DNA of 61,393 nt from contig JAJZQU010000001.1 in NCBI GenBank assembly GCA_021806685.1, positions 1-61,393 on the forward strand. Direction: 5' to 3'. This document shows, piece by piece, positions 16,161 to 61,277 of this stretch (positions within the stretch are counted from its first letter, which is position 1; every line of letters begins with the position of its first letter). The notes beneath the pieces are model-generated. The model was given only the letters and a program-made list of their open reading frames with translations. It was not told where the DNA came from and searched no databases. The position numbers and the translations under genes were made by a program. This DNA comes from a bacterium. Its GTDB lineage: Bacteria; Patescibacteriota; Patescibacteriia; 2-12-FULL-60-25.

Positions 16161-16238
16161 AGGGATGGCTACTTTTTAGCTCGCCTGGGCTTGACAGAGC
16201 TGCGAATAAGTGACATAAGTTGGACAAAGGAGGATCAC

Positions 16239-16763
16239 ATGCGTTTCAAGAACCCTGCTGATTTTCTCGGTTGGCTCAACGAGTGCGTAGTCATTCACGT
16301 TGACCCGAAGGGGACGCGATTCGTCGAACGACCTCAGGTCGAAAGGCAAGGCTACGGCCAGCAGTGCATACTTTCGCTTGAGCAACCCAAGCGGCTTGTC
16401 TGGGCCGTCGAGGTCGACAGGATATTGGAAGGGCCGTGCCCGCCGAGGGACTATCAAAGTGTTGACTTGGATAAGTTCCCGATGGGGAAATGCGTCAAGT
16501 ACGCGAACCAGCCAGATGCACCGGATAAATCCTGGTTGCACGAATCTCTCGCATTGGAGGGCATGAAGGACGTCAAGAGAATCCTCGTGTTCGCGGAGTG
16601 CTGCGGCAGCTACAGTCCTGAGTACCAGGCTAGGATTCGTCGGCTCTTTCCTCAGATCGAGTGGATGTTTGTAGAAGTCCGCGATCTTTGCGAAAACTCG
16701 TACAATCATCCGGTTGAAATCGCCGATGACTTCGTAAGAGCCGGCGTACTGCGGATCGAGTGA
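16239..16763 (+). CDS. Hypothetical protein (GC-richer, SD-bearing orphan)
   Basis: AAGGAGG lies 5 nt before the ATG at 16239. Codons are mostly C/G-ending, and the terminator at 16787..16820 follows. No family recognised. Confidence 0.6.
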   Translation: MRFKNPADFLGWLNECVVIHVDPKGTRFVERPQVERQGYGQQCILSLEQPKRLVWAVEVDRILEGPCPPRDYQSVDLDKFPMGKCVKYANQPDAPDKSWLHESLALEGMKDVKRILVFAECCGSYSPEYQARIRRLFPQIEWMFVEVRDLCENSYNHPVEIADDFVRAGVLRIE

Positions 16764-16786
16764 ACGATATTGCCGACCACTATAGA

Positions 16787-16820
16787 ACCTGTTCGCAACT
16801 CAGCGCACAGGTCTTTTTTT
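16787..16820 (+). terminator. Intrinsic terminator of the 16239 gene
   Basis: Stem ACCTGTTCGC/GCGCACAGGT (9 of 10 positions pair), followed by a T7 run. Confidence 0.6.
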
Positions 16821-16828
16821 AACTCAGA

Positions 16829-16857
16829 ATAAAAAATGCCCGCTTATTCGGCGGGGC
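16829..16857 (-). terminator. Intrinsic terminator of the HAD gene
   Basis: A GCCCGC..GCGGGG hairpin overlaps the stop codon and is followed by a T-run on the minus strand. Confidence 0.5.
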
Positions 16858-17479
16858 AGAAAGAGGCGGCGAAGTGGAGCAGGGAGCGGTAGTGCGGCAC
16901 GTGCGGGGGAAGAGAGCCGGACGGCACACGGAAGTCCGGATCAAAGAGCGCGGCTTGGGCACCGGCGTTCGTAGCGCCACGCACGTCAGCCGGCACGGAA
17001 TCTCCGATGTGCAGCAGTTCGTCCGGCCCGATTCTCGCGAGCTCACAGACGTGTTGGAAGATGCGGGGGTCGGGTTTTTCAAACCCCACCAAGCCGCTAT
17101 CAACCACATGTTCGAAGTACGCTCTGATGCCAGCATCTTTGATGTTCTGTTCAACAGTGCCATTGGCATTACTGAGCACCAACAGACGGAACCCCTTGGC
17201 CCGAAGCGTCTCTAGGCAGGGGATAACACCTGAACCCAGGGTTTTGAACCAGATCAAGCCGCCGGAGAAAAAGGTGGTGACGTCGGGGAGCGGCAAGTTT
17301 TTCAGGACCGTGCTTTTCCCGTTGGTCTTGTTGTAGCGTGTTCTGAGTTCAGCCTCTTTGAGTTGGTCGGCTGTGAAGCTTTGTCCGTAGTACTTCTTCG
17401 CAAGCTGGTTGAACTCGTCAAAATTGGCATAAACCAGCGTGTGTCCGGCATCAAAACTGATCACCCTAGGCCTTTTCAT
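16844..17479 (-). CDS. HAD-superfamily hydrolase (GC-richer, SD-bearing)
   Basis: HAD motifs are ISFDAGHTL (I), LSNANG (II) and HIGDS..D (IV). AGGAGG lies 5 nt before the ATG at 17479. Confidence 0.8.
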   Translation of the reverse strand: MKRPRVISFDAGHTLVYANFDEFNQLAKKYYGQSFTADQLKEAELRTRYNKTNGKSTVLKNLPLPDVTTFFSGGLIWFKTLGSGVIPCLETLRAKGFRLLVLSNANGTVEQNIKDAGIRAYFEHVVDSGLVGFEKPDPRIFQHVCELARIGPDELLHIGDSVPADVRGATNAGAQAALFDPDFRVPSGSLPPHVPHYRSLLHFAASFCPAE

Positions 17480-17512
17480 GAACACCTCCTGGCAGGTTGT
17501 ACCCGATTTCGC

Positions 17513-17518
17513 TATCAT
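17513..17518 (+). promoter_or_regulatory. -10-like TATCAT, 8 nt upstream of the ligA ATG
   Basis: Read directly. No SD. It overlaps a palindrome (CTATCATATG) that could also serve the divergent HAD gene. Confidence 0.3.
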
Positions 17519-17526
17519 ATGCAAGT

Positions 17527-19599
17527 ATGACCCATGCCCAAGCCGTTGAAAGGATAGCCAAATTAAGGCAAGAAATTGACCGTTACCGCTACCAATACCA
17601 TGTCCTGAACAACCTTGAGATATCTGAGGCGGCTTTGGATGCGCTTAAGCACGAACTTTATAAACTGGAGTCAGAATTCCCAGAACTGATTACGCCTGAT
17701 TCTCCGACCCAGCGCGTGGCCGGCGGGGTTGCCAAGGGTTTTAAGAAAGTTAAGCATGAGGTGCGCATGATTTCGTTGGAAGACGTCTTTTCATTTGAGG
17801 AAGCAGAAGAATGGCTCAAGCGCATCAAAAAAATCAATCCCCATTGTGATGACCATGGCCTTTATGCCGAAATCAAAATGGATGGTTTGGCAGCTGCTTT
17901 GATTTATCGAGATGGAAAGTTGGTGCGCGGCGCCACGCGCGGAGATGGGAACGTGGGCGAGGATGTGACGACCAACCTCAAGACAATTGAATCCATCCCA
18001 TTGGTTTTGCGTAAGCCGAGCGAACGCGAATTAGATGCTTACTGCCATAAATTCCAAGGCCAGATAAACGAAAGGCACTTACGGCACATCGTGACTTCGC
18101 ACGAAGGCGAGTTAGAGATTCGCGGTGAGGTTTATATGCGTCGCAGCGTCTTAAAAAAGCTTAACGCTAAGCTTAAGAAAGATGGCGAGGCTGAGTTGGC
18201 CAACCCGCGTAACGCGGCTGCTGGCGGAGTAAGACAGTTGGACTCGAAAATTACGGCTGAGCGTCATCTTTCATTTATGGGTTGGCAAGTCGTCGGTGAC
18301 ACTGGCACCAGGACACACGAGCAGTCGCACGAACTCATGAAACTTTTGGGCTTCCCGTCAGGTGATTTCAATACTTTGTGCGATGACATCAAGGGCGTGC
18401 AAAAAGTCATGGAAAAAATCGGCAATGTCCGTGACAAGCTGGATTACCAAATTGACGGCGTCGTCATCAATATCAATGACGACAAGATTTTTTCCGATTT
18501 AGGTATTGTCGGTAAGACTCCGCGCGGTTCAGTGGCCTGGAAGTTCGCGGCTGAGCAGGGGACGACAGTTGTACGTGACATTAAAGTTTCTGTCGGCCGG
18601 ACAGGTGTCTTGACCCCGGTGGCTGTCATGGATCCTGTCCAGCTTGCCGGTACAACTGTCACGCACGCTACTTTGCACAACGAAGATGAGATCAGGCGCT
18701 TAGGTCTCAAAATCGGCGATACGGTCATTGTCGAGAAGGCCGGTGACGTGATTCCTAAGGTCGTCGAAGTCTTGTCACGGCTGCGGACAGGCAAGGAAAA
18801 AGCTTTCCATATGCCAACGCATTGCCCGATTTGCGGTTCAAAAGTCACCCGTAAGGAAGGCGAGGTGGCGACTATGTGCACTAACCCGCGTTGCTTTGCG
18901 CAGGAGCTGGCAAGCTTGGGCCACTTTGTGGCCAGGGATGCGCTGGATATCCGTGGCTTGGGCGAAAAAATCCTGGAAACATTTTTGCAAGAAGGCATCA
19001 TCAGTGAACCGGCTGATTTGTTCCGCATCCAACCAGGTGATTTGGGAGGCTTGGAAGGCTTTGGTGAAATCTTGTCCAATAAGCTGGTCAAAGAGATTCA
19101 AGAGCACCGCAAAGTAACTTTGCCGCGATTTATTTATGCCTTGGGCATCCGCCACATTGGCGCTGAGAATGCTATTGTCCTGGCGCGCCATTTCAAGACG
19201 TTTGATAAGTTGCGGGAAGCGACTCTCGAAGAATTGGATAGCATTGAAGGCGTGGGTGATGTGGTAGCTAAAGCTATCCATGATTTTTTTCACAGTAAGG
19301 ACGAGATGACAAAGGTCAATCACATCTTGGAGTTTGTTCGCGTTGAGCGCGAGACAAGCGAAGCTGCCCATGGCCGTTTATCCGGTACGACCTGGGTTTT
19401 TACGGGCACGCTTGATTCTGTGGCGCGAGATGATGCCAAAGAAATGGTGCGCAAGCTGGGCGCTGATGTTTCCGAGTCAGTTTCAAGAAAAACAACTTAT
19501 GTGGTGGTCGGGGCTGACCCCGGATCAAAGGCTGATAAGGCCAAAGAGCTGGGTGTGACAATGCTAGATGAAAAAGAGTTTTTAAAGATGTTGCGATAG
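17527..19599 (+). CDS. ligA: NAD-dependent DNA ligase
   Basis: KMDG adenylation motif, OB fold, a Cys4 zinc finger (CPICGS..C..C), HhH repeats and a C-terminal BRCT domain. Confidence 0.95.
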   Translation: MTHAQAVERIAKLRQEIDRYRYQYHVLNNLEISEAALDALKHELYKLESEFPELITPDSPTQRVAGGVAKGFKKVKHEVRMISLEDVFSFEEAEEWLKRIKKINPHCDDHGLYAEIKMDGLAAALIYRDGKLVRGATRGDGNVGEDVTTNLKTIESIPLVLRKPSERELDAYCHKFQGQINERHLRHIVTSHEGELEIRGEVYMRRSVLKKLNAKLKKDGEAELANPRNAAAGGVRQLDSKITAERHLSFMGWQVVGDTGTRTHEQSHELMKLLGFPSGDFNTLCDDIKGVQKVMEKIGNVRDKLDYQIDGVVININDDKIFSDLGIVGKTPRGSVAWKFAAEQGTTVVRDIKVSVGRTGVLTPVAVMDPVQLAGTTVTHATLHNEDEIRRLGLKIGDTVIVEKAGDVIPKVVEVLSRLRTGKEKAFHMPTHCPICGSKVTRKEGEVATMCTNPRCFAQELASLGHFVARDALDIRGLGEKILETFLQEGIISEPADLFRIQPGDLGGLEGFGEILSNKLVKEIQEHRKVTLPRFIYALGIRHIGAENAIVLARHFKTFDKLREATLEELDSIEGVGDVVAKAIHDFFHSKDEMTKVNHILEFVRVERETSEAAHGRLSGTTWVFTGTLDSVARDDAKEMVRKLGADVSESVSRKTTYVVVGADPGSKADKAKELGVTMLDEKEFLKMLR

Positions 19600-19745: not shown

Positions 19746-19754
19746 TGGTATCAT
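19746..19754 (+). promoter_or_regulatory. Extended -10 box TGGTATCAT, 8 nt upstream of the ATG at 19763
   Basis: Read directly. No SD. Confidence 0.4.
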
Positions 19755-36315: not shown

Positions 36316-36354
36316 AAAAAGAGCCCCTGCAGACGAGTCACGTCTTGCAAGGGG
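36314..36354 (-). terminator. Intrinsic terminator of the 36685 orphan gene
   Basis: On the minus strand, a CCCCTTGCAAGACG..CGTCTGCAGGGG hairpin is followed by CTCTTTTTTT. Confidence 0.65.
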
Positions 36355-36685
36355 ACCAAGGAGTCCGTAGTTCCGGGTCAACAACCACGTATTCACGTGG
36401 GTGCTTCGGATGGTCTTCTACTGCCAGCAAGATGATCTGGCGGATGTCTTCCCTGAGCCATTTCTGGCCGACCTGGATCATGCCGCGGATGATCAGGAAC
36501 TTGATTGCGGGTTTTGAGAGCGGGGGCTTGTTGTCTTCGCCGCGGCAATGCCTTACGAGTTCAACAAATACCCTGGGGTGGTCTAGCGCTATCAGGCGGA
36601 GAAAGAGCATCGTGCCGATCTTGACTGCGCGGTCAACGCGCATGTTGCCTTTGAGGATGCAGTCCCTCCAGAGCTTGTTGTCCAT
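36338..36685 (-). CDS. Hypothetical protein (GC-richer, SD-bearing orphan)
   Basis: AAGGGAGG lies 5 nt before the ATG at 36685, and it has its own terminator. No family recognised. Confidence 0.55.
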   Translation of the reverse strand: MDNKLWRDCILKGNMRVDRAVKIGTMLFLRLIALDHPRVFVELVRHCRGEDNKPPLSKPAIKFLIIRGMIQVGQKWLREDIRQIILLAVEDHPKHPREYVVVDPELRTPWSPCKT

Positions 36686-36822
36686 TAGAACCTCCCTTGT
36701 GTGCCTTAGTTTTGGCACAGAACAGGCAAGATGTCAAGATACTCGACATATCTCTCAGCCCGCCGTATACTGGCTAGTGCGGTGGTTTTTAGCCGCTATT
36801 TTGGCGTCTACTCCGCACAATT

Positions 36823-39372
36823 ATGCAAGATAAAATAACAATCCGTGGAGCTCGCGAGCATAATCTCAAAGACATTAATTTAGAGATCCCGCGCAACAAG
36901 ATGGTCGTTTTTACAGGCTTGTCCGGCTCGGGCAAGTCGTCTTTGGCGTTTGATACGATTTTTGCCGAAGGCCAGCGCCGCTATGTTGAGTCACTTTCGG
37001 CTTATGCCCGCCAATTTTTGGGCCAGATGAAAAAGCCCGATGTGGACGAGATCGAAGGCTTGTCGCCAGCCATTTCAATTGACCAAAAAGCCCATAGCGC
37101 CAACCCGCGTTCAACGGTCGCCACCATCACTGAAATTTACGATTACATGCGCGTGCTTTATGCCCGCGTCGGCCATCCGCATTGCCCGATTGGCGGTGAG
37201 CCGATCAGGAAGATGACAGTCGATGAGATTGCGGACGCCGTTCTCCAGCGCACGATTGAGATCCACAGCAAGCCCGAAGAAATCAAGAAACGCAAGAAAG
37301 CATCCAGCGCCAATGAGATTGTCATCCTCTCGCCCTTGGTGCGCGGCAGGAAAGGGGAGTACATGCAGATGTTGCAACAGGCTTATGAAGGCGGTTTTTC
37401 GGAAGTTCGCCTTGATGGCCAAATTTTTCCTTTGCGTGACCGTGTGCCGCTTTCGCGTAACGTGCGCCACAACATTGAATTGGTCGTAGACAAGATTCCT
37501 CTGGCTTGGCCAATCGAAAACAACAAACCTTTAAGGTCACGTCTGGTTGAGGCTATTGAAATCGCCTTGGATCGCGGTAATGACTCCGTGATTGCTGTTT
37601 TGGATGATGGTTCTGAAAAGTTGATGTCAGCCCGCTTTGCCTGCCCTGAACATGATTTTTCTTTTCCTGAGATTGAACCGCGCTTATTCTCGTTTAACTC
37701 GCCTTATGGTTCGTGCCCGACTTGTACTGGTTTGGGTACGGCTTTTCTTTTTTCCGAAGATCCTTGCCCTGTCTGCAAAGGCGCGCGCCTGCGTCCCGAG
37801 GCTCTACATGTCTTTATTAATAAGAAGAGCATCGTCGACGTGACGGGCATGACCATTGCAGAAGCACACGAGTTTTTTGAGACTCTCAAACTTACAGAAA
37901 CGGAGATAGCCATCTCAGAAGGCATCCTCAAGGAAATAATGGCCCGCCTCCAGTTTATGCTGGATGTTGGCTTGCATTACCTGACTTTAAACCGCATTGC
38001 CGGTTCCTTGTCTGGCGGTGAAGCCCAGCGTATCCGCTTGGCCTCGCAAATCGGATCCAAATTGGTCGGCGCTTTGTATGTTTTGGATGAACCGACTATC
38101 GGTCTCCACCAAAAAGACAATGCCAGGCTGGTTGAGACGCTCGAGAAACTGCGTGATGCAGGCAACTCGATCATCGTCGTCGAGCATGACGAAGATACGA
38201 TAGCGGCGGCTGATTATCTGGTTGATTTTGGGCCGGGTGCCGGCAAGCGTGGCGGTAAGATTGTGGCCCACGGTCCCATGCCACAAATTTTGCAGGATAA
38301 GAATAGTTTAACTTGCGCTTATTTGCGCGGCGACAAGCAGATTACCATGCCTGCCAAGCGCCGCGGCGAAGCTAAACAATGGTTGACCATCAAAAAAGCC
38401 AGGGCCAACAACCTCAAAAATATCAACGTCAAGATTCCACTTAAGCGTTTTGTTTGCGTGACCGGCGTCTCAGGCTCTGGCAAATCAACTTTGACGATTG
38501 ATATATTGTACCGGGCCTTGGCTGCCAAATTGAATGGTTCGATGGCCAAGCCATCCGCCCATGACAGCATCCAGGGCATTGATTGGGTGGATAAGATAAT
38601 TGACGTCGACCAATCGCCTATCGGTCGCACGCCGCGCTCCAATCCCGCCACTTATACCGGCATGTGGTCGCATATCCGCGACTTATATACGTTAACGCCG
38701 GACGCCCGCATGCGCGGCTATAAGCCGGGTCGTTTTTCGTTCAATGTCCCTGGTGGGCGTTGCGAACATTGCGAAGGCAACGGACAAATCGCGATTGAAA
38801 TGCATTTCTTGCCAACGGTTTACGTGCCGTGCGAAGTCTGCAAAGGCAAACGATTCAATCGCGAGACTCTGGAAGTTAAATACCGCAATAAAAGCATTGC
38901 CGACGTCTTAAGCATGACAGTGGAAGAAGCAGATGTATTTTTTAAGGACATCCCTCCGGTACGTGACCGTACCAAGGTCTTGACCGAAGTCGGACTTGGC
39001 TATATCGAACTTGGACAGGCAGCTACGACTTTATCCGGCGGAGAAGCGCAACGTGTCAAACTCTCGGCTGAACTAGCACGCCGCGATACCGGCCATACTG
39101 TCTATATCCTAGATGAACCGACAACTGGTTTGCATTTTGACGATGTGCAAAAACTTTTGGACGTCCTCCAGCGCCTCGTTGACCGCGGCAACACGGTTTT
39201 GATCATCGAACATAACTTGGACGTGATTAAAAATGCTGATTGGATCATTGACCTTGGCCCCGAAGGCGGGGATAAGGGCGGACACATCGTAGCCGAAGGA
39301 ACTCCGGAAGAAGTTACACAAATCAAATCAAGTTACACCGGGCAGTATCTAAAGAGGGTGTTGAAACGTTAA
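36823..39372 (+). CDS. uvrA: Excinuclease ABC subunit A, short form lacking the insertion domain
   Basis: Two ABC modules (GLSGSGKSS and GVSGSGKST; LSGGEAQR twice). Only 13 residues separate CPTCTGLG from CPVCKGARL, where canonical UvrA carries a ~110-aa insertion domain. Confidence 0.9.
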
Positions 39373-39417
39373 AAAAACACCCTCGCTCGCCTCGAGTTTA
39401 TCGAAGTGGAGTGAGGG

Positions 39418-39618
39418 CTAAGAAGGCGGGTGCTCTTCGCGCTTGGGCTTGAAGGCGGATCTTAGGGAAATGAGCAGGCCGCTCAGGAAAATGATTGATA
39501 CGACGAAGAGGTCGAAGACAGTCTCCCTGATTCTCTTGTGGGCGATGCAGAGCATGGCCACTACAGCGGCTACAGCGGTAACGAACAGGATGATGAGCGT
39601 GACGTAGTCAGTTTCCAT
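39418..39618 (-). CDS. Small two-TM hypothetical protein (SD-bearing orphan)
   Basis: GGAGG lies 6 nt before the ATG. It is 66 aa with two hydrophobic helices. Confidence 0.5.
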   Translation of the reverse strand: METDYVTLIILFVTAVAAVVAMLCIAHKRIRETVFDLFVVSIIFLSGLLISLRSAFKPKREEHPPS

Positions 39619-39636
39619 GGCTACCTCCAGGGCCTT

Positions 39637-39665
39637 AAGCTAGCAAAAATGAGTCATTCCGTCAA
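39637..39665 (-). promoter_or_regulatory. Sigma70-type promoter TTGACG-N17-TAGCTT for the 39618 gene
   Basis: Read on the minus strand. Confidence 0.4.
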
Positions 39666-45312: not shown

Positions 45313-45335
45313 AAAAGAGACGTTCATTGAACGTC
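45311..45335 (-). terminator. Intrinsic terminator of the 46622-45324 orphan operon
   Basis: GACGTTC-ATT-GAACGTC hairpin, followed on the minus strand by TCTTTTTT. Confidence 0.6.
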
Positions 45336-45818
45336 AGGAGGCGGGGGAGGCGGAGGATCTTTTGGTTTTGGTTCGAAGTAATTTTCTAGATCAGCAGCTG
45401 GAATAGAGATGCGGCCTCTGTACAGGGCATGAGCCAGGGTCAGTTGCATGGCCTTTTCGCCGTCCATTTCCTCGCTCAGGTCGGAAATCTCGATTCGACC
45501 TTTGGACAGGTATGTCTCCACATACCTGCACAGGGCAGCTCTCGGGTCATAGTCCTGCCTAAAAAGCCAAGGAACAGGGATGACCAGGTTGGCAAAAGCT
45601 CCTGGAGCGATCAGCTCGGCAAAGATGATGGTTAGATCGTGCTCCTCGCCCGGGTCGTCTTTGCGCAGATGGAGCTGTATTTCCACAGAATCAAGGTTGA
45701 TCTGGGCTTCAACCTTGAAGGCGTAGCCTGGCTTGAGCTCATGGCCCTCGTAAGAGCAGTCGAGGATTGTATTCTGCAGTGGTACGAATTCAGGGAGAGG
45801 GAAGACTGGTCCCTTCAT
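45324..45818 (-). CDS. Hypothetical protein with poly-Pro C-terminus (GC-richer orphan)
   Basis: GAGG lies 7 nt before the ATG. Leu codons are CTG-rich. No family recognised. Confidence 0.55.
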   Translation of the reverse strand: MKGPVFPLPEFVPLQNTILDCSYEGHELKPGYAFKVEAQINLDSVEIQLHLRKDDPGEEHDLTIIFAELIAPGAFANLVIPVPWLFRQDYDPRAALCRYVETYLSKGRIEISDLSEEMDGEKAMQLTLAHALYRGRISIPAADLENYFEPKPKDPPPPPPPDVQ

Positions 45819-45920
45819 GTTATGCCTCGCTTTCTATGTGCTGGCAGGAGCTTAACATAATGGCAAAAGAGGGCAAGAAGAGTCGTTTTATAAAAAAATT
45901 AGCCTTGGCAGTTGCCTTGG

Positions 45921-46622
45921 CTAGAGTGATATGGAGTCCGGACCGGACTGGGGAGCGCATTGTGGAGGCAGGGAAGGCGGAGATTTGCGCTCGTCTTCGT
46001 CGTCGCAATGAATCCGTTGAACTGTGCCACGCAAAGCTGGGCTTGAGTAGTTGAGAATCAGGCCGCATTTGCAAAGGGCAACCTGCTTAGGCCCTGCTTC
46101 GCAGAGAGCCCCTTCTTCGACGTCGTGCATATCGCAAATGTTGCCGATGAGGCAGCTCTTGAGCAGTGGTTTGCCCTTAGGTCGGCACTCATTGCGGTAG
46201 AAACCGTCAGGGTGCCCCTCGAAGGGCGTGAGCAGTAGACCAAGATGACAGTACATGGTCATTGATATCAGTATGTTGCCTATGCGCGTGAGTGGCATTC
46301 CTTCAAAGGATTTGCCTTCATCCTCGCATCGGCAGCTGTAATCGACCTTGCTTGGTTCTTCCCATGGGTCTGAGGATGACGATGATGGACTGCCGGGAAT
46401 CGTGATTTCTCCTAGGTGCAGTTCTTTCCTCGGCTCGTCGGAGGCCGATGGAATCGGATCAGGCACCAAAAGCTGCGACGATGCGGACTGCGATGCAACG
46501 GGGCAGGGCGCCTGGTTAGCCAGGTTAGCTTTGGTTTGGTCCGCCACTATGGCAGCAATTATTGTCACGACCAGACCAACCGCAATTGCCAACAAGAGGT
46601 TGATCTTGTGTTCGATAGTCAT
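45921..46622 (-). CDS. Hypothetical membrane-anchored Cys-rich protein (GC-richer orphan)
   Basis: The internal ATG at 46622 is preceded by AAGGGAG, and the N-terminus is a TM helix (INLLLAIAVGLVVTIIAAIV). The ORF-track extension to 46871 has no support. Confidence 0.5.
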   Translation of the reverse strand: MTIEHKINLLLAIAVGLVVTIIAAIVADQTKANLANQAPCPVASQSASSQLLVPDPIPSASDEPRKELHLGEITIPGSPSSSSSDPWEEPSKVDYSCRCEDEGKSFEGMPLTRIGNILISMTMYCHLGLLLTPFEGHPDGFYRNECRPKGKPLLKSCLIGNICDMHDVEEGALCEAGPKQVALCKCGLILNYSSPALRGTVQRIHCDDEDERKSPPSLPPQCAPQSGPDSISL

Positions 46623-46666
46623 GTCTTGGCACTCCCTTGTGTTGTCAAAACGGTTTGCGATTGTTG

Positions 46667-46694
46667 ATAGTAGCAGGAATGTTGATTGTGTCAA
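46667..46694 (-). promoter_or_regulatory. Sigma70-type promoter TTGACA-N16-TACTAT for the 46622 gene
   Basis: Read on the minus strand. It would give a ~40-nt leader containing the SD. Confidence 0.45.
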
Positions 46695-54548: not shown

Positions 54549-54576
54549 TTGACATATCCAGCTAACCTGCTAGAAT
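54549..54576 (+). promoter_or_regulatory. Sigma70-type promoter TTGACA-N16-TAGAAT for the 54633 orphan
   Basis: Read directly. A ~50-nt leader follows, ending in AAAGGAGAG. Confidence 0.5.
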
Positions 54577-54632
54577 CGTTTTCGCGTTCAGTGAGAAACC
54601 TCGCAAGAGAGTTTGCCTAAAGGAGAGTTGTG

Positions 54633-55349
54633 ATGACGTCGAATTGTGGTGTTAGTCAGGAAACGGTTGATGAAGTCAGAAGAATCAAGAGCCTTGATGA
54701 CGAGTTCGATCAACAGGTAGATACCCTGATCAGGTCAGGTATCCACAGGTGCGTCGAACCTTTGGCAATGGGAGAGCGAGCATTCCGCGAGATGCTCAAC
54801 GAGCTCAAGGACCCTCTGCGTAACATTGAGTTCGCTCCAGGGGACGAATTTCCCAGGTTCCTGATCGTAGTTCCGACTGGTTTGGTTAGCCTGCATAGCC
54901 AATGCCACCTCATAAGTTGGGAAGGTCGAAATGTCAGGACAACCATTTTCGAGAATGAGCTGTCTGTCATTTTCAATGGCAGGCCGCATTGCCTGCCATA
55001 CCTGGCTGCCCAGATAGACATGGGTTGCGATTACCGCCCTCTTTCGACCGACGAGTACTCAACCTACATCAGTGGCACCGGCCAGAGTCCGTTCTATGCC
55101 GAAGAACTCCTCGCGCTCCTGCGCTGCAAGCCACCGGCCATGCTCGAAGGCAAGTTCTTCTGCGCCAATATGCGCCACGGGCCTGACAAGCGCGGCGTGT
55201 ACCTCCAGCTTGGGAAGGACAACTTCCAACTCAATACAGAGGACAAGGACATTGCGGGCCGGGACCACAGGTTCCCGTCTTGTTCCAAACGCCTCTACAT
55301 GACCAGGAAACCGCCTCGCCCCAGTGGCAGTCCGGCTTCCTTTGATTGA
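54633..55349 (+). CDS. Hypothetical protein (GC-richer, SD-bearing orphan)
   Basis: AAGGAGAG lies 5 nt before the ATG at 54633. Codons are C/G-ending. No family recognised. Confidence 0.6.
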   Translation: MTSNCGVSQETVDEVRRIKSLDDEFDQQVDTLIRSGIHRCVEPLAMGERAFREMLNELKDPLRNIEFAPGDEFPRFLIVVPTGLVSLHSQCHLISWEGRNVRTTIFENELSVIFNGRPHCLPYLAAQIDMGCDYRPLSTDEYSTYISGTGQSPFYAEELLALLRCKPPAMLEGKFFCANMRHGPDKRGVYLQLGKDNFQLNTEDKDIAGRDHRFPSCSKRLYMTRKPPRPSGSPASFD

Positions 55350-55397
55350 GGCCTCGGCTCTTAACCGGACTCGGTTTTGAGCCTATTTTTTATTAAT

Positions 55398-55472
55398 AAC
55401 CAAATTCGAATGTCCAATAACCAAAAAATAACCAAATTGGAGCTTTTTTGGACATTGGTAATTAGAGTTTGG
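55398..55472. repeat. CCAAT-heptad imperfect palindromic element, copy 2
   Basis: AACCAAATTCGAATGTCCAATAACCAAAAAA ... TTTTTTGGACATTGGTAATTAGAGTTTGG. The right box matches copy 1 (1682..1704) in 20/23 positions. Confidence 0.6.
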
Positions 55473-55514: not shown

Positions 55515-55826
55515 ATGATTGCTGTAATTGCGACCGGCGGTAAACAATACCTGGTCAAAGAAGGAGACAAAATCGAGATCGAAAAGATCAAAGGCGAGAA
55601 AGGCGAAGCCGTGACTTTTGATAAAGTGCTTTTGACTGCCGAAGAGGATGGTTCAAAGCTCAATGTCGGGACGCCTAACCTGTCGACCAAAGTCACAGGA
55701 AAAGTTATGGAACAGGGTCGCCACGACAAGATTGAGGTTGTGCATTACAAGGCCAAGGTGCGCTACAAGAAGCGCCAGGGCCACAGGCAGCCTTTCACGA
55801 GAATTGAAATCACAAAAATCGGGTAA
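55515..55826 (+). CDS. rplU: 50S ribosomal protein L21
   Basis: MIAVIATGGKQYLVKEGD..., 103 aa. The internal ATG at 55515 is used, because ORF-track start 55377 lies in the repeat. Confidence 0.9.
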   Translation: MIAVIATGGKQYLVKEGDKIEIEKIKGEKGEAVTFDKVLLTAEEDGSKLNVGTPNLSTKVTGKVMEQGRHDKIEVVHYKAKVRYKKRQGHRQPFTRIEITKIG

Positions 55827-55838
55827 CCCCCGATTTTT
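55815..55838. terminator. Bidirectional hairpin between rplU and recR
   Basis: AAAATCGGG-TAACC-CCCGATTTT overlaps the rplU stop. Confidence 0.55.
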
Positions 55839-56439: not shown

Positions 56440-56750
56440 TATTTTTTAGTCATCTCTTGGATATCTTTGGCCAAATCCAAGCCGCCAATATCCTTAAGCT
56501 TGCCTGACAAGAGTTTTTGCAGTTTTTCGGCTGCATCATTACAAGCATCCTTAATCAAATTTTGGAGGTTGGCTTTGTCGGCCAAAGCATCATCTGTCAG
56601 CACCACGTTTGTCACACGTTGGTTGCCGTTCATGTTAATTTTGACTTTGCCCCAGCCGGATGAGCCTTCAACGGTTTCTTTTTCCAAAGTTGTCTGAATC
56701 TGCTTGGCGCGGCTGCGAAGGTCTTGGAATTGCTTGAGTTTGTTGAACAT
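56439..56750 (-). CDS. ybaB: YbaB/EbfC nucleoid-associated protein
   Basis: ~100 aa. GSSGWGKVKINMNGNQRVTNVVL fits the family, and the gene is upstream of recR as in most bacteria. Confidence 0.8.
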   Translation of the reverse strand: MFNKLKQFQDLRSRAKQIQTTLEKETVEGSSGWGKVKINMNGNQRVTNVVLTDDALADKANLQNLIKDACNDAAEKLQKLLSGKLKDIGGLDLAKDIQEMTKK

Positions 56751-56793
56751 ATGCGAACCATGTTACCGATTAGCCGGATAAACGTCAAAAAGT

Positions 56794-56817
56794 AAAAAAA
56801 GAGCCCAGTTACCTGGG
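56794..56817 (-). terminator. Intrinsic terminator of the 57249 orphan gene
   Basis: CCCAG-GTAA-CTGGG hairpin on the minus strand, followed by CTCTTTTTTT. Confidence 0.55.
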
Positions 56818-57249
56818 TAGAGTTTCGTCCTTCTCTTTCTTTGGGAAGACCCTCGTGGCAATGATGAAGATAGCAGCCAATCCCAGGGCGCGGGCTGCTG
56901 GCTGCAACCAATCTCCGGCCGTGTATAGCCGATAGACTAGGCAGGCAACATCTTCCACGAAGTACAAGATGATGATTATGGAGGCCATGGTAATCGACCT
57001 TTTGAGGATGGCTTTCAGCTGCTCTTCCTGTTGCTTTCGGAGCTCCGGATTAGTTGAAAGGTCGAAGTTATACAACCTCAGGAAGATGAAGGTTGCAATT
57101 GCCATAAGGCTGAGCGCCCAACTTAAGTCGCTTGCCAAAGAGTAGTGCCAGCTTTCATGCACTAGAAGCCAGTCCTTGGCGATTGCCAGCACCAATGTGG
57201 AGCCCATGGCGAATTCAAAGAACATCTCAAGAGCCTCAACTCGCTTCAT
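56809..57249 (-). CDS. Hypothetical four-TM membrane protein (SD-bearing orphan)
   Basis: GAGGAGG lies 5 nt before the ATG, and it has its own promoter and terminator. Confidence 0.6.
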   Translation of the reverse strand: MKRVEALEMFFEFAMGSTLVLAIAKDWLLVHESWHYSLASDLSWALSLMAIATFIFLRLYNFDLSTNPELRKQQEEQLKAILKRSITMASIIIILYFVEDVACLVYRLYTAGDWLQPAARALGLAAIFIIATRVFPKKEKDETLPR

Positions 57250-57271
57250 GTCAACCTCCTCTGAGTAAGCA

Positions 57272-57301
57272 ATTCTAAGTACACTTAATCATTAATGTCA
57301 A
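57272..57301 (-). promoter_or_regulatory. Sigma70-type promoter TTGACA-N18-TAGAAT for the 57249 orphan
   Basis: Read on the minus strand. Confidence 0.45.
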
Positions 57302-57331
57302 TGATAAAGGATGTTCAGGATGAATATTTAA

Positions 57332-58858
57332 TCAAAACGGCATGCCTGGCGGCGGAGTGTTAGTGATGGGAGTGTTGGGATCAAAATCAATTGGAGGCAG
57401 TTGGGCCGGGCTCATGGGCGGGGCGATGGTCGGCCTGGGTGCGGAAGAGGGGACGGCGGCATGGGCCATGGCCGGTTGCAGACCGGCTGCGCCTTGGGGT
57501 TGCTTGGCCAAGCTGCGGAAGCTGGCGCGTGTCTCGTCGAAAAACAGTTTTACCAAACCAGTTGGACCGTTGCGGTGTTTGGCAATGTGGATTTCTGCCA
57601 AATGCCGTTCATCAGGCGATAAATCTTCCAGTCTATAGTTTTTATCGGCAGCTTTGCGGTAAATGAAAAGTACGATGTCAGCGTCTTGCTCGATTGAACC
57701 TGATTCACGCAAGTGGGAGAGTTTAGGAATGGCTGGCTTGACCAATTCAACAGCGCGCGCAAGCTGGGAAAGGGCCAACACAGGCACTTGGAGTTCACGG
57801 GCAATAGCTTTAAGGCCGCGCGTAATTTCGGCCACTTCCTGCACGCGGTTTTCTGCGCCATTGCTGCCGCGCGATTCCATAAGTTGCAAGTAGTCGATAA
57901 TCACAAAACCCAGGCCGTGTTCCATTTGCAAACGGCGTGCCTTGGTCCTGATTTCCACGATATTAGCTGAAGCTGCATCATCGATATAGATTGGAGCTTC
58001 GGACAATGTGCCAATGGCATGGCCAATGCGCGAAAAATCATCATTTTCGCCTTGGTCAGACAAGCGGCCGGAATGCATTTTCCACAAATCAACGTTAGCC
58101 TCAGCGCAAATCAAGCGGTCAACAACTTGTTCCTTGCTCATTTCCAACGAGAAATAACCAACCGGCACTTTGTGCTTGACTGCCGCGTTGCGCATGAAGT
58201 CGAGCGAAAGCGAAGTTTTGCCGCAAGAAGGGCGGGCAGCCAAAATCACCAAGTCGCTTTTCTGCAAGCCATTGAGCATGTTGTCCAAATCAACAAAGCC
58301 TGTGGCCACGCCGCGCAGCTTGCCTTTTTCACGGTGGATTTCGTCAATGCGCTCAAAAGCCGAATCCAAAATGTTGGTGATGGGGGTAAAAGCCGTTTTC
58401 ACGAACTTTTGCGAAACACCAAAAAGTTTTTGTTCAGCCTGGTCCAAAACAGTTTCAACATCTTCCGATTGCTCAAAGCCCAAAGCAGTGATGTCCTGTG
58501 CTGCATGGATCAAGCGCCTGAGCGTGGCTTTTTTCTGGACAATGCGCGCGTAATTCTGCACGTGGCTCGAAGTGGGCACTGTGTTGGCCAGCTGGATCAA
58601 ATAAGCGCGCCCGCCGATAGCTTCCACCTGTTTTTTTTCTTCCAAGCGATCGGTGACTGATAAGATGTCGATTGGCTCATGCTTGCGGAACAAATCAGAC
58701 ATGGCCTCAAAAATCTCACGGTGTTTGTCAGCGTAAAAATCTTCCGGCGTTACCATGTCACCCACGCGGATAATGGCTTCTTTGTCTATCAGCAAAGCGC
58801 CCAGCAAAGACATTTCTGCATCCAGGTTTTGGGGCACCAGCTTGTCGCTATCTGACAT
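57332..58858 (-). CDS. dnaB: Replicative DNA helicase DnaB with a Pro-rich C-terminal tail
   Basis: PQNLDAEMSLLGALL, Walker A ARPSCGKTS and Walker B VIIDYLQLM. The ATG at 58858 is preferred over the GTG at 58864. Confidence 0.9.
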   Translation of the reverse strand: MSDSDKLVPQNLDAEMSLLGALLIDKEAIIRVGDMVTPEDFYADKHREIFEAMSDLFRKHEPIDILSVTDRLEEKKQVEAIGGRAYLIQLANTVPTSSHVQNYARIVQKKATLRRLIHAAQDITALGFEQSEDVETVLDQAEQKLFGVSQKFVKTAFTPITNILDSAFERIDEIHREKGKLRGVATGFVDLDNMLNGLQKSDLVILAARPSCGKTSLSLDFMRNAAVKHKVPVGYFSLEMSKEQVVDRLICAEANVDLWKMHSGRLSDQGENDDFSRIGHAIGTLSEAPIYIDDAASANIVEIRTKARRLQMEHGLGFVIIDYLQLMESRGSNGAENRVQEVAEITRGLKAIARELQVPVLALSQLARAVELVKPAIPKLSHLRESGSIEQDADIVLFIYRKAADKNYRLEDLSPDERHLAEIHIAKHRNGPTGLVKLFFDETRASFRSLAKQPQGAAGLQPAMAHAAVPSSAPRPTIAPPMSPAQLPPIDFDPNTPITNTPPPGMPF

Positions 58859-58933: not shown

Positions 58934-59000
58934 CATGTAGCATGTAACACGAAACATGTAACATTGGAATGTAATTTTGCTACATGTTACATGCTACATG
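58934..59000. promoter_or_regulatory. Perfect 16-bp inverted repeat CATGTAGCATGTAACA / TGTTACATGCTACATG with extra ACATGT-type units (candidate operator)
   Basis: The arms are at 58934..58949 and 58985..59000. The right arm abuts the -10 box at 59006. Confidence 0.45.
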
Positions 59001-59005
59001 CTACA

Positions 59006-59014
59006 TGGTATAAT
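59006..59014 (+). promoter_or_regulatory. Extended -10 box TGGTATAAT, 8 nt upstream of the ATG at 59023
   Basis: Read directly. No SD. Confidence 0.45.
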
Positions 59015-59022
59015 TGTGTTAA

Positions 59023-60153
59023 ATGAAACAAAACTCCAAAGTCCTGGACGTTACTTTGAATCTTATCGGGACCATCATAGGGGCTGGAGTTTTTGGATTG
59101 CCTGCAGTCATGGCAAAAACAGGGGTTTTGGGCGGCACGCTCATCTTTTTTGGGATAATGGTTGTGGCTTTGTTGCTGCATTTGTTGTTCGCCCAAGTTG
59201 TTCTGGCTGACAAGACCAAAAGGCGGTTGGCTGGCTATGCCGGCAAGTGGGTTGGCGGATGGGCTTATTGGGCAGCTTTGGTAATCTTTTTCTTCAAATG
59301 CTGCGGCGCCATCTTGGCTTACATTATTTTGGGCGGGGAGTTCATTTCAGCCATTGCCCACGGCCTTGGCTTGTTTGACGTTGTTTGGGTTTGGCAGTTG
59401 GTCTTTTGGGCAGTTGGGGCAGTCATCGTTTTCTTTGGCTTGAAGATCGTAACTCATGTCGAGGATGACCTGACTTGGTTGCTGGTCGGCGCCATGCTTT
59501 TTTCCGGCGTTGTCCTTGTACCGTTTTTTGATTGGCATGGCCTAAGCACATTGAATGCCATGAACTTTTGGCAAGCCTTGGGTGTCATGTTCTTTGCCGT
59601 GACTGCCATGACAGTCATCCCTGAGGCGGTTGATATTGCCGGGCGGAACGCTAGCACATCGCAGCGAGGGATTATCTGGGGCACGGTTATAGCAGGCGTG
59701 ATCTCTTGGATTTTTGGGTTGAGCATTGCTTTGGCTTATCCGGGTGTCCAAGCCGCGGCTGATATTTCGTTGGCTTTCCCGCCGATTTTCTGGTGGCTCA
59801 TCCCGACAGTTGGCGTCTTGGCCGTTGTCACTTCTTATTTGACTGTTACCCAAGCCCTGAAGAACCTTTTGAGCCTTGATGTCGGTTTAAAGCCAGTTTG
59901 GTCTTGGATCGTGGCAGTTGCCGTGCCTTTGGGATTTTTCGCAATCACTGCCCGCAATTTTTTAAACACGATTGGCTTTGTTGGCGGAGTGCTGACCGGC
60001 TTGTCGGGCTTGATAGTTTGCCTTTGCGCTTGGCAAGTCATGCGCCGTAAGGGGGTGCGCATCAACTGGGTTTGGAAATGGCTGCCTTTGCCTTTAGGTT
60101 TGGTCCTCTTGGCCATTGTTTTGCAGGAGCTTATGACATATGTCAAAATATAA
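59023..60153 (+). CDS. Amino-acid permease-like transporter (Trp/Tyr-permease / Aa_trans-like)
   Basis: The N-terminal LIGTIIGAGVFGLPAVMAKTG motif and ~11 TM helices. Confidence 0.6.
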   Translation: MKQNSKVLDVTLNLIGTIIGAGVFGLPAVMAKTGVLGGTLIFFGIMVVALLLHLLFAQVVLADKTKRRLAGYAGKWVGGWAYWAALVIFFFKCCGAILAYIILGGEFISAIAHGLGLFDVVWVWQLVFWAVGAVIVFFGLKIVTHVEDDLTWLLVGAMLFSGVVLVPFFDWHGLSTLNAMNFWQALGVMFFAVTAMTVIPEAVDIAGRNASTSQRGIIWGTVIAGVISWIFGLSIALAYPGVQAAADISLAFPPIFWWLIPTVGVLAVVTSYLTVTQALKNLLSLDVGLKPVWSWIVAVAVPLGFFAITARNFLNTIGFVGGVLTGLSGLIVCLCAWQVMRRKGVRINWVWKWLPLPLGLVLLAIVLQELMTYVKI

Positions 60154-60156
60154 TAT

Positions 60157-60576
60157 ATGAGAAAATATTTATCGTTCGTTTATATCCCGCTGCTTAAGTG
60201 GCTGGCCAACCTAACGCTTATCATGTTGGTTTTCGGTTACCTGCTCACCACGCCGCTTAACCCATGGCTTGAGTTGGGCATTGGCTGGACATTGTCCATG
60301 TTGATCGCCATGTTTTTCACTTATTGGGCTTGCCACAAGGAAATCTTCCAAGGCAAAAAGTTGGCGCTGTTCATCGCCTGTTGGGTCGTCATCACGGCTG
60401 GCATGGAAATGTTTTTGAGCTATTACACTTTTTGGAGCCCGTTCTTTACGCTCTTGCGTTTCGAGTTTGCCGTCCAAATGTTGGCTGAGATTTTGGGCAT
60501 CCTAATCATCATCAAAGTCCTGCGCAGACAGCATGCGTACAACGTCGCGGCAGAGGGGATTAACCTCGAAGGATAA
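60157..60576 (+). CDS. Hypothetical four-TM membrane protein
   Basis: Hydrophobic ORF starting 3 nt after the permease stop. Confidence 0.5.
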   Translation: MRKYLSFVYIPLLKWLANLTLIMLVFGYLLTTPLNPWLELGIGWTLSMLIAMFFTYWACHKEIFQGKKLALFIACWVVITAGMEMFLSYYTFWSPFFTLLRFEFAVQMLAEILGILIIIKVLRRQHAYNVAAEGINLEG

Positions 60577-60594
60577 AACTGAAAACTAGAAACC

Positions 60595-60660
60595 ATGTCC
60601 CGAGCGAAGTCGAGGGATGGAAAGAGTTTATCTGTCATCCTCGCGCATGCGGGGATCCAG
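60595..60660. repeat. Degenerate copies of the TGTC..CCGAGCGAAG / TGTCATCCTCGCGCATGCGGGGATCC repeat family
   Basis: Sequence similarity to the termini of 21534..21620 and of the GIY-YIG cassette. Confidence 0.45.
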
Positions 60661-60682
60661 AAATAAAAAGAGATAAAATCCC

Positions 60683-60710
60683 TTGACTTTTATGTATTGA
60701 TATGTAATAG
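60683..60710 (+). promoter_or_regulatory. Sigma70-type promoter TTGACT-N16-TAATAG (TG-extended) for the 60759 orphan
   Basis: Read directly. It shares the CCCTTGAC context with the promoter at 54549. Confidence 0.45.
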
Positions 60711-60758
60711 ATTACACATCCTGGTTCAAGGTGAATCAGAAAATGAGGAGGTCGTAAA

Positions 60759-61217
60759 ATGACATGTCCGATCTGTGGGAGGGTGTATTGCGATCATAGT
60801 CCAGCCGAGCGAGGTCAGACGCTAAATGAGATGTTGGCTGACTGCAGTGCTCCGTCTGTCGTGGAGAATGCGGAGGCGACGAGACCCAAGCCCCAGAGCA
60901 AGAATGCGCGTTCGACGGCCGCGGCCAGCAAGAAGAAGGAGGGCCTAATCCAACACAAGAAGTACTTCGGTGGCAAGGTGCAGACTCTCGGCTTCCACAG
61001 CGGAGACGCCATCACCTTCGAGACCTGTGTCGTCGAACCGGGCGAGTACGACTTCGGCACGGCGGAGCAAGCAGAGATGATCACGTGCACTTTCAATGAG
61101 ATGACCGTGAACGGCAAGGCGATCAGGCCGGGCAGCAGGCCATTTGTGATCCGGCCGGGCGATCCACGCAAGATTTCAGCCAAGCAGATGGCGACCTACA
61201 GCTGTATGTGCAGGTAG
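60759..61217 (+). CDS. PpnP/DUF1255-like cupin with an N-terminal Cys-containing, Lys-rich extension (GC-richer, SD-bearing orphan)
   Basis: The C-terminal ~90 aa (KKYFGGKVQTLGF...VVEPGEYDFGTAEQAEMITC...ATYSCMC) parallel the pyrimidine/purine nucleoside phosphorylase PpnP. GAGGAGG lies 8 nt before the ATG. Confidence 0.6.
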   Translation: MTCPICGRVYCDHSPAERGQTLNEMLADCSAPSVVENAEATRPKPQSKNARSTAAASKKKEGLIQHKKYFGGKVQTLGFHSGDAITFETCVVEPGEYDFGTAEQAEMITCTFNEMTVNGKAIRPGSRPFVIRPGDPRKISAKQMATYSCMCR

Positions 61218-61245
61218 CAACGCCGCGCAGGGGGGCTCTCACAGG

Positions 61246-61277
61246 CCTGGAGAACGATTGTTCACCGGGTCTTTTTT
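61246..61277 (+). terminator. Intrinsic terminator of the 60759 gene
   Basis: Imperfect stem CCTGGAGAAC/GTTCACCGGG, followed by TCTTTTTT. Confidence 0.45.

Follow-up and report, generated by a model that had tools for sequence, protein, structure and literature searches.

Shine–Dalgarno-led single-gene modules with their own codon style lie between core genes in a chromosome segment assigned to the Patescibacteria

Introduction

Phage morons of the HK97 gp15 type are independent promoter–gene–terminator units inserted where relatives have two genes side by side (Cumby et al. 2012, PMC3594210). Here we describe nine single-gene modules of comparable layout in a 61.4 kb stretch of DNA with 49% GC (contig JAJZQU010000001.1, all of which is referred to below as the window), judged from its sequence to be a chromosome segment of an uncultured member of the Patescibacteria, or candidate phyla radiation (CPR), whose nearest named relatives are annotated as Uhrbacteria and Magasanikbacteria. 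Like morons, the modules carry, by their sequence, a promoter and a terminator of their own, differ in composition from their surroundings, often encode what appear to be small membrane proteins, and are, in some cases, present or absent as whole units between relatives. Unlike morons, they are located in a cellular chromosome between housekeeping genes rather than in a prophage and have no phage-family matches, most have been inherited in place across species, and their compositional offset is specific to certain codon families rather than a matter of general GC. Leaderless initiation, translational coupling and moron-like modules have all been described, and the statement in an earlier note on this DNA that no described mechanism fits was therefore too strong; these and translational codon bias are the known parts of a pattern that is real and statistically solid, and in which it is the tight association of the parts that appears to be new.

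A mixture of leaderless and Shine–Dalgarno (SD)-led genes is characteristic of the GeneMarkS-2 'group C' (Lomsadze et al. 2018, PMC6028130), for which the passages of that paper concerned with the group give Actinobacteria and Deinococcus-Thermus as the main phyla, with no mention there of Patescibacteria. The window resembles group C, as outlined in those passages, in having a Pribnow box some 6–10 nt before first genes and, for another set of genes, an SD 5–8 nt from the start. However, internal genes and leadered first genes generally use an SD in group C as so described, whereas only 1/27 internal genes does so here, and SD use is limited to about 14% of the genes, which are monocistronic, fast-evolving and distinct in their codons. 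Among the papers available to our search, none tied leaderless or SD usage to the Patescibacteria.

Accessory-gene hot spots or 'islets' between core genes occur in bacterial pangenomes, and in the window, too, a few conserved slots collect gains, losses and replacements while the flanking core synteny is kept. In contrast to such islets, the modules are single genes with full expression signals and a mode of initiation which they share and which is foreign to the core, and no integrases, tRNA targets or flanking repeats were found with them. The bias of highly expressed genes under translational selection is towards C-ending NNY codons; the shift we report likewise affects two-fold pyrimidine codons and the Leu family, with little change at most four-fold sites, and is shared by the gene for ribosomal protein L21. 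The genes usually subject to such selection serve translation and energy, whereas those described here encode lineage-specific proteins without known function, for which high expression is putative. Integron cassettes are promoterless open reading frames (ORFs) with an attC site moved by an integrase, unlike the modules, which are scattered and have promoters of their own; Pfam scans of neighbouring genes gave no integrase, and no attC search was made.

Results

We curated 64 genes in the window, made up of nine candidates, numbered 1–9 in the order in which the earlier note had listed them and all present as ORFs where it had placed them, and 55 backbone genes. Comparisons were made with 10 kb of the same genome past each end of the window (L170 and L172), with close relatives chosen by RsmH identity (L086, 95%; L085, 75%; L084, 74%) or by the HAD hydrolase described below (L167 and L169), and with three distant relatives, L002, L003 and L004, in which DnaB is 61–63% identical and GC is 32–46%. 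Initiation signals were scored by how well the 20 nt preceding each start pair with the 16S tail CACCUCCUUU, and duplex energies were −8.1 to −14.1 kcal/mol for the candidates (−11.8 for candidate 1, −14.1 for candidate 2 and −12.7 for candidate 9) against a mean of −1.7 for the 55 backbone starts (p = 2.7e-6). The claim that each of the nine has a GGAGG-type SD was upheld, with the motif 3–5 nt before the ATG (5–8 nt as counted in the earlier note), and since −8 kcal/mol is reached by only 3.6% of 1016 internal ATGs (binomial p = 5e-4 for at least 9/64 genes), chance can be excluded as its source. In the backbone a strong SD-like motif was seen for pilC (9723) alone, as AGGAGG 12 nt upstream of the ATG; it falls inside the end of the preceding gene (window 9690–9722) and is not conserved in L167 or L169. 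When a uniform pipeline was used, the share of ORFs preceded by a strong SD was 10–13% for this genome, its relatives and Saccharibacteria loci, and 42% for Bacillota loci.

The difference in codon style which had been claimed for these genes was also confirmed. GC content at third codon positions (GC3) is 0.57–0.75 in the candidates (mean 0.67) compared to a backbone mean of 0.52 (Mann–Whitney p = 1.5e-5), while GC2 is equal in both. Leu CTN and TTR codons are used 126:23 in the candidates and 781:985 in the backbone (p = 1e-22), and the C-ending codon is preferred for Tyr (TAC 80% vs 36%), Phe (TTC 74% vs 32%), Asp (GAC 66% vs 39%) and Ile (73% vs 51% ATC/(ATC+ATT)). This shift is limited to particular codon families. 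Six of the eight four-fold families are the same in both classes, with GC-ending use in candidates and backbone of 0.60 and 0.58 for Val, 0.54 and 0.52 for Pro, 0.59 and 0.53 for Ala, 0.69 and 0.61 for Gly, 0.56 and 0.50 for Ser TCN, and 0.64 and 0.65 for Arg CGN (p > 0.1 in each case), the shifted ones being Thr and Leu CTN. The shift is strong for Tyr, Phe, Asp, Ile, Lys and Gln (p = 2e-3 to 9e-12) and also for which Leu family is chosen, and it is weaker for His and Cys; the signature of the candidates consists of C-ending two-fold codons, AAG and CAG, and Leu CTN over TTR. From backbone to candidates, pooled GC at four-fold sites (GC4) moves from 0.55 to 0.63 and two-fold pyrimidine C/(C+T) from 0.42 to 0.70. 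The backbone gene nearest to the candidates in codon use is rplU (L21), the only ribosomal-protein gene in the window (C/(C+T) 0.64, Leu CTN 0.80).

We then compared 16 SD-led with 102 other genes in a replication set which the earlier note had not seen, consisting of the flanks and five close relatives. The SD-led genes were again higher in GC3 (+0.09, p = 3e-6), Leu CTN (+0.26, p = 3e-7) and C/(C+T) (+0.16, p = 5e-5). Core genes in the flanks were again without an SD, and two new flank genes (L170:14966-15499 and 18866-19312) have a TTGACA promoter, leader and GGAGG, a GC3 of 0.64–0.67, and no Pfam match. The suggestion that the genes form a distinct expression class is supported by the co-occurrence of SD, leader, monocistronic layout and codon style in the window, in the 20 kb of flanks and in the five close relatives, and the link between SD and codon use is claimed for this genome and its close relatives only.

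The backbone genes have signals of another kind. Twenty-seven of them overlap the previous gene on the same strand or begin ≤15 nt from it, with ATGA-type junctions such as those of the gene at 7206..7604 (+), where ATGA overlaps both ends (7206/7209 and 7601/7604) and there is no SD. First genes, meaning those after a gap, have a TAnnnT box ending 6–11 nt before the ATG in 14/28 cases, compared to 0/9 candidates and 3/27 coupled genes (Fisher p = 0.007 and 0.003, respectively), and these −10 boxes are often extended (TGnTAnnnT). At 59009..59025 (+), for example, the extended −10 box TGGTATAAT (hexamer 59009–59014) lies 8 nt before the ATG at 59023, and TGCTATAAT lies 6 nt before the ATG at 43791; the same layout is seen at 2181–2186, 11663–11668, 16032–16037 (−), 17513–17518, 19749–19754, 43779–43784, 48729–48734, 49331–49336 and 55500–55505, and the boxes next to the ATG are kept upstream of orthologues in relatives. 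A −10 box adjoining the ATG would indicate a leaderless mRNA, and overlapping or abutting internal genes would indicate translational coupling, and as neither mode needs an SD, this would explain why the backbone lacks one. Codon style seems to follow initiation mode and not accessory status, because AT-rich accessory genes in the same slots appear to be leaderless, such as the DUF559 gene at 15663–16025 (−) with a GC3 of 0.36.

Two observations were made at uvrC. A TTGACC-16-TACCAT promoter (window 39669–39705) ends right at the annotated ATG (39697), and the in-frame ATG at 39703, 6 nt past the −10 box, is more likely to be the start of what would be a leaderless uvrC. The rhodanese-domain and PEP-utilizer-domain genes coupled to uvrC (40989–43783; GC3 0.44–0.48) are found in L086 and are absent from L085 and L084, and this patchiness indicates that accessory genes occur in the SD-less coupled class as well.

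The candidates could be followed into other genomes, and the term 'orphan' used for them earlier proved to be unsuitable, as candidate 1 matches 56 representative clusters and candidates 2–8 have counterparts, with the SD retained, in the same slots of related Patescibacteria metagenome-assembled genomes (MAGs), five of them detectable by BLASTP. In L085, every slot from uvrA to dnaB that is occupied in the window also holds a gene, with BLASTP orthologues of candidates 3 (35% identity), 5 (39%) and 7 (49%), the last in the same DUF192|L21 slot. Promoter and leader conservation was checked for candidates 3, 4 and 5, and was retained. In L085, candidate 3 conserves the −35 box, a leader hairpin (GTGCCAAAACTAnGGCAC) and GGGAGG, and the protein encoded in the candidate 4 slot is small and hydrophobic, with its start preceded by the TAGCTT −10 box and the GGAGGTAGCC that are also seen in the window. 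Candidate 5 belongs to a paralogue family with 2–3 tandem copies in L085 and L086 (33–39% identity), in which leader and N-terminal anchor share ~76% DNA identity and the Cys-rich part has diverged. Divergent small hydrophobic counterparts with an SD occupy the candidate 8 slot in L085 and in L082 (GCA_027331165.1), and orthologues of the candidate 2 HAD hydrolase adjoin ligA in L167 (58%) and L169 (53%) with the GGAGG before the start kept. The candidate 6 orthologue in L086 is 85% identical, with a ratio of non-synonymous to synonymous change (dN/dS) of 0.17, and the gene is absent from L084. GC3 is raised in these orthologues too, at 0.77 (L167) and 0.64–0.65 (L169) for the HAD hydrolase and 0.75 (L085) for candidate 7.

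Protein identity to relatives is 23–58% for the candidates (85% for candidate 6) and 57–99% for their core neighbours. The dN/dS values of 0.17 for candidate 6 and 0.45 for candidate 5 compare with 0.03–0.14 for neighbours, at synonymous divergences (dS) of 0.5–1.4, with candidate 8 being saturated, and non-synonymous change in the candidates is 3–10 times faster. The candidate proteins are real, under purifying selection, resident in the lineage and fast-evolving. The distant L002, L003 and L004 keep the order permease–dnaB–ybaB–recR–rplU–DUF192–mraY-like...clpB, and none of the three has a gene in the candidate 8 slot (dnaB|ybaB), nor do L002 and L003 have one in the candidate 7 slot.

Slots change by whole modules. 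In L086, a 388-aa gene that the window lacks lies between the stop of Nramp and the terminator of candidate 6, and the inserted segment spans exactly a TTGACA promoter, leader, GAGGAGG, ORF, hairpin and T7; L086 also has an extra candidate 5 paralogue. In L084 the whole Nramp|mraZ slot is empty with clean boundaries, and both L084 and L004 have unrelated SD-led genes in equivalent slots. Neighbouring core genes vary in dS from 0.13 to 1.35, and the L082 sequence aligned with window 44633–58329 is 99.5% identical up to the rplU|recR junction (55838) and then 77–79% across recR, ybaB and dnaB, which may be either a recombination mosaic or a strain-chimeric MAG contig; together, the spread of dS and this switch would indicate recombination. 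A search for att-like direct repeats flanking the nine modules found none, and the only repeat-flanked unit is a DUF559 cassette outside the nine (15610–16160).

The modules themselves are as follows. Module 1 (16191..16835, +) has TTGACA (16191–16196), a 17-nt spacer, CATAAG (16214–16219), GGAGG (16229–16233) and the candidate 1 coding sequence (CDS; 16239–16763, 174 aa), and ends in a hairpin and T-run common to the convergent module 2; its junctions are the same in NCBI and Logan assemblies. Module 2 (16839..17495, −), divergent from ligA, has a HAD-IA hydrolase CDS (16844–17479, 211 aa; Pfam HAD 5.6e-18) with AGGAGG 5 nt before the ATG and a terminator hairpin at 16839–16855. In module 3 (36316..36737, −), TTGACA (36737–36732) is followed by the leader hairpin GTGCCAAAACTAAGGCAC, GGGAGG, the CDS (36338–36685, 115 aa) and GGGGCTC then T7, and the junction was seen again in a Logan contig. 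Module 4 (39371..39665, −), between uvrA and uvrC, has TTGACG-N17-TAGCTT, GGAGGTAGCC and a CDS (39418–39618, 66 aa) for a protein that seems to span the membrane with two hydrophobic segments, and ends in a hairpin and T7. Module 5 (45921..46694, −) has TTGACA-16-TACTAT (46694–46667), a leader of ~38 nt, GGGAG and a CDS (45921–46622, 233 aa) in which a hydrophobic anchor at the N-terminus, a Ser/Pro linker and a domain rich in Cys can be read, and module 6 (45313..45860, −) has a GCGAGG SD, a CDS (45324–45818, 164 aa) and a terminator hairpin (45319–45335) then a T-run. Module 7 (54549..55400, +) has TTGACA-16-TAGAAT with a TG extension (54549–54576), a leader of ~50 nt, AAGGAG, a CDS (54633–55349, 238 aa, distant DUF5701), and a hairpin and T-run; module 8 (56804..57301, −) has TTGACA-18-TAGAAT (57301–57272), a short leader, GAGGAGG, a CDS (56809–57249, 146 aa) for a hydrophobic protein, apparently of the membrane, and the hairpin CCCAGGTAACTGGG then a T-run; and module 9 (60740..61290, +) has GAGGAGG, a CDS (60759–61217, 152 aa, with a C-terminal PpnP-like region) and a T-run terminator, with no clear promoter. 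Most are oriented against the flow of the core operons, with 6/9 on the minus strand compared to 7/55 backbone genes (p = 0.0014).

By their sequence signals, the modules can be read as units transcribed independently, each from a promoter and up to a terminator that belong to it, though some of the signals proposed earlier need qualification. The promoters at 54549, 57301 and 46694 were the top sigma-70 matches of their regions (10–11/12 consensus positions, with 10/12 for candidate 5 and 11/12 for candidate 7); the one at 39665 (TTGACG-N17-TAGCTT) is weaker but conserved in a relative, that proposed at 60683 failed the scan, and those of candidates 1, 3 and 4 are plausible by sequence. A T-run within 70 nt of the stop follows all nine candidates, with three terminators recovered by a strict scan, but since backbone operons end in the same way, terminators do not mark the class. 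An Rfam scan of the leaders for riboswitches and known RNAs gave tRNA only.

Pfam, NCBIfam, PHROGs and PADLOC bore out the view that the proteins have no recognisable family, the exceptions being the HAD hydrolase, the PpnP-like protein and a sub-threshold match to DUF5701. Six homologues of the HAD hydrolase are 53–75% identical to it, the named ones from Patescibacteria, with all others at ≤38% full-length identity. Candidate 7 has six homologues among 5.8 billion proteins, with the two that are named both from Patescibacteria and one annotated as DUF5701, and its structure model was unusable (predicted local distance difference test, pLDDT, 42). The candidate 1 family has ~170 aa with conserved Cys67, Cys121-Cys122, His101 and Trp99, and its AlphaFold model (pLDDT 91, predicted template modelling score 0.85) gave no significant fold match in PDB or BFVD, and the fold or family may be one not described before; nothing was found when PDB sequences were searched with profiles of the candidate 1 and 7 families. 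A viral origin was considered and ruled against by searches of IMG/VR contigs with three candidates, which found no viral relatives, by a PHROGs scan of the nine proteins and a PADLOC scan, which gave nothing beyond a generic HAD match, and by the candidate 1 fold search.

The other window genes include recJ, a type IV pilus operon, ligA, gatCA, uvrA/uvrC, mraZ-rsmH, clpB-like, rplU, recR, ybaB, dnaB and one tRNA-Ser, and because of this housekeeping content the window can be regarded as cellular chromosome. The window DnaB is 58–63% identical to its best matches among one-per-species genomes, which are CPR MAGs labelled Magasanikbacteria and Moranbacteria plus two labelled 'Gammaproteobacteria' that we suspect are mislabelled. 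Where RsmH and HAD homologues have a name, it is 'Patescibacteria group bacterium', and Uhrbacteria sequences share ~60% identity with RsmH. Stretches that are identical or 99.5% identical, candidate junctions included, were found in ENA, NCBI (GCA_027331165.1) and Logan assemblies, and the recurrence of the same junctions in independent assemblies excludes chimeric assembly, which it had been suggested should be checked.

We also note several features of the window other than the modules. The DUF559 endonuclease gene at 15663–16025 (−), which is AT-rich and apparently leaderless, is enclosed by a 51-nt direct repeat (15610–15660 and 16110–16160, 94% identical), each copy of which holds the hairpin CTCCTCCTC...GAGGAGGAG, and this unit, which directly precedes candidate 1, has the look of a small selfish cassette. 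A low-GC stretch (33191–36315, 35–44% GC) begins at tRNA-Ser(GGA) and includes a 260-aa ORF (34544–35326) of 28% GC without a Pfam match; judged by composition, recent transfer is more plausible for this stretch than for any of the nine. Two big minus-strand proteins (26322–31873), one of 651 aa with CarboxypepD_reg repeats and one of 1196 aa with a Peptidase_S74 (endosialidase chaperone) domain, probably serve the episymbiont at its surface or in adhesion. A palindromic-looking intergenic element of ~125 nt has two copies, 86% identical, at 1583–1710 (recJ/RNase H gene) and 55395–55478 (candidate 7/rplU). Heptamer tandem repeats (AATATCC x9, AAACTAG x4, CATGTAA and TGCTACA x4; 1583–1645, 24616–24646 and 58934–59007) sit in spacers just upstream of putative leaderless promoters, and the spacers of relatives, by eye, carry other repeats (AGGACG-like and AAATTCT-like runs in L167 and L086).

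Discussion

Two signal architectures, positional conservation, a difference in rates, insertions and deletions of whole modules and a codon shift specific to certain families were all observed, and we think it probable that the best reading of these is a resident, fast-turnover accessory class of leadered, SD-dependent genes inside a genome that is otherwise leaderless or coupled. The first genes of core operons, with −10 promoters (often extended) ending 6–11 nt before the ATG, would be transcribed as leaderless mRNAs, and for downstream core genes, which overlap their predecessor or adjoin it, translation would come about by coupling with no need of an SD. Genes of the minority class (9/64) would each be monocistronic and possess a promoter (most with an evident TTGACA-type −35), a leader of ~10–50 nt, a strong SD and a terminator of their own, and these genes would be resident in the lineage, in slots which gain and lose entire promoter-to-terminator modules. 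As the codon signature has outlasted synonymous saturation, we infer that it is kept by an ongoing force, which may be tied to the expression mode of these mRNAs and is most likely selection for efficient elongation on strongly initiated transcripts. A bolder version, to which we give clearly less credence, is that there are two translation regimes, with a leaderless or coupled core read without SD pairing and a separately tunable, SD-dependent regulon of fast-evolving membrane, secreted and unknown proteins with adapted codon use; this whole set might be raised or lowered at once (e.g., on host contact) via initiation factors or anti-SD accessibility, and new genes would join it as complete promoter–SD–terminator modules.

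A number of results do not sit easily with a resident accessory class. No clear −10 box was found beside the ATG of 13 first genes, and transcription start sites, and with them leaderless starts and leaders, as well as expression levels and the cause of the codon bias, are interpretations of sequence signals. There was no rRNA in any fetched locus, and CACCUCCUUU is a presumed tail for this host. The 'optimal codon' reading relies on a single ribosomal-protein gene, with the putative pilin and YbaB lacking the bias, and one of the new SD-led genes (L170:18866-19312) is low in C-ending use. GC4 was also raised in the replication set (+0.07, p = 0.002), and some general GC effect exists in the relatives. 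With crude ORF calls, the GC3 excess of SD-positive ORFs was +0.04 in distant relatives and +0.05 in Saccharibacteria, and as the Bacillota control matched these (+0.04), the proposal of a clade-wide link between codon use and SD was dropped. The slot comparison was made with relatives that do not span candidate 9, and in L004 (37% GC) an SD-led gene with no detectable homologues and a GC4 of 0.62 compared to 0.30 for its neighbours looks like a true horizontal import.

This last gene resembles what the earlier note had proposed for all nine, that they are single-gene cassettes recently acquired from an SD-using, higher-GC bacterium with the unameliorated composition of the donor. Higher GC3, different codons, self-contained signals and slots that are empty in the distant L002 and L003 are all in agreement with this, and the HAD, PpnP-like and DUF5701 families occur outside the CPR as well. 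The idea of cassettes survives insofar as genes are gained and lost as modules in slots empty in distant relatives, but a foreign donor is very unlikely, and for candidates 2–8 it has been largely refuted. For seven of the nine, relatives at a dS of 0.5–1.4 or more have a counterpart in position that shares the SD and the raised GC3, and the nearest homologues found for candidates 2 and 7 were all from Patescibacteria, beyond which identity drops to ≤38%. There are no mobility genes or flanking repeats around the modules and no viral, PHROG or PADLOC matches. Six of the eight four-fold families match the backbone, and it is there that donor GC should show most. A GC3 shift which is family-limited and persists past saturation therefore speaks against a signature of transfer, and looks like selection rather than foreign composition. 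The same argument disfavours GC-biased gene conversion, since this and a higher-GC donor should both hit four-fold sites at least as strongly. Gene conversion at recombination hot spots, or strand orientation with the genes mostly on the lagging strand, might otherwise account for the codon shift by mutation; GC skew is positive along the plus strand of the window, on which only three of the nine lie, minus-strand genes of both classes are somewhat higher in C/(C+T), and the slots show recombination. However, the three plus-strand candidates are shifted too (C/(C+T) 0.64 vs 0.41 and Leu CTN 0.79 vs 0.45), minus-strand core genes (dnaB, recR, ybaB and the large surface proteins) are not, and as neither process explains unchanged Val, Pro, Ala and Gly or the switch from TTR to CTN, we regard a mutational cause as improbable.

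A less distant source would be a moron-like mobile pool shared among related Patescibacteria, entering by DNA uptake and flanking homologous recombination or by illegitimate insertion, and giving the modules the composition of the pool. The module-exact 388-aa insertion and extra paralogue in L086, the wholly empty slot in L084 and the unrelated SD-led genes in equivalent slots of L084 and L004 are what such a pool would produce, the dS range of core genes (0.13–1.35) and the 99.5% to 78% switch in L082 point to frequent recombination, a type IV pilus operon is encoded in the window, and the layout fits the published definition of a moron (PMC3594210). Nonetheless, most modules are inherited in place with conserved leaders, the composition of a pool would move four-fold sites too, and no module recurred in identical form in a second slot or genome. 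A pool of constant composition was rejected, because SD-led genes in the low-GC L087 track the host backbone, those without homologues having a GC3 of only 0.41–0.44. We consider the pool to be rather unlikely as an account of the class, and give almost no weight to an artefact, either a chimeric assembly of two organisms or spurious ORFs. The window is a metagenome assembly and L082 shows an abrupt change in identity, but ENA, NCBI and Logan assemblies agree on the junctions, relatives conserve the ORFs at dN/dS values below 1, candidate 1 folds confidently, and every module consists of one gene placed between core genes that are in synteny.

Returning to morons and islets with these results, the neighbours of the modules are recJ, the pilus operon, ligA, gatCA, uvrA/C, mraZ-rsmH, clpB-like, rplU, recR and dnaB rather than phage or prophage genes. 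Absence from relatives is true of the extra L086 module and of slots in L084, L002 and L003, yet 7/9 are in place in close relatives, and while GC3 is deviant as expected of a moron, 6/8 four-fold families are not and the difference outlives synonymous saturation in orthologues. A recent islet of higher GC would be atypical in composition at all sites, absent from close relatives, related to proteins of other phyla and accompanied by mobility genes or repeats; the modules show none of this, being in place in L085, L086, L167 and L169.

Conclusions

An atypical GC3 is, on its own, no evidence of horizontal transfer, and gene finders and start callers tuned to the SD will mis-start most core genes in genomes of this kind. 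If our reading is true, then initiation mode, codon choice and evolutionary rate can be tightly linked within one genome. Should the pattern be genome-wide, the combination of SD, leader and codon style would provide a marker, readable from sequence, of lineage-specific and fast-evolving genes in an uncultured episymbiont clade, and the genes so marked would be the likeliest mediators of interaction with hosts or phages.

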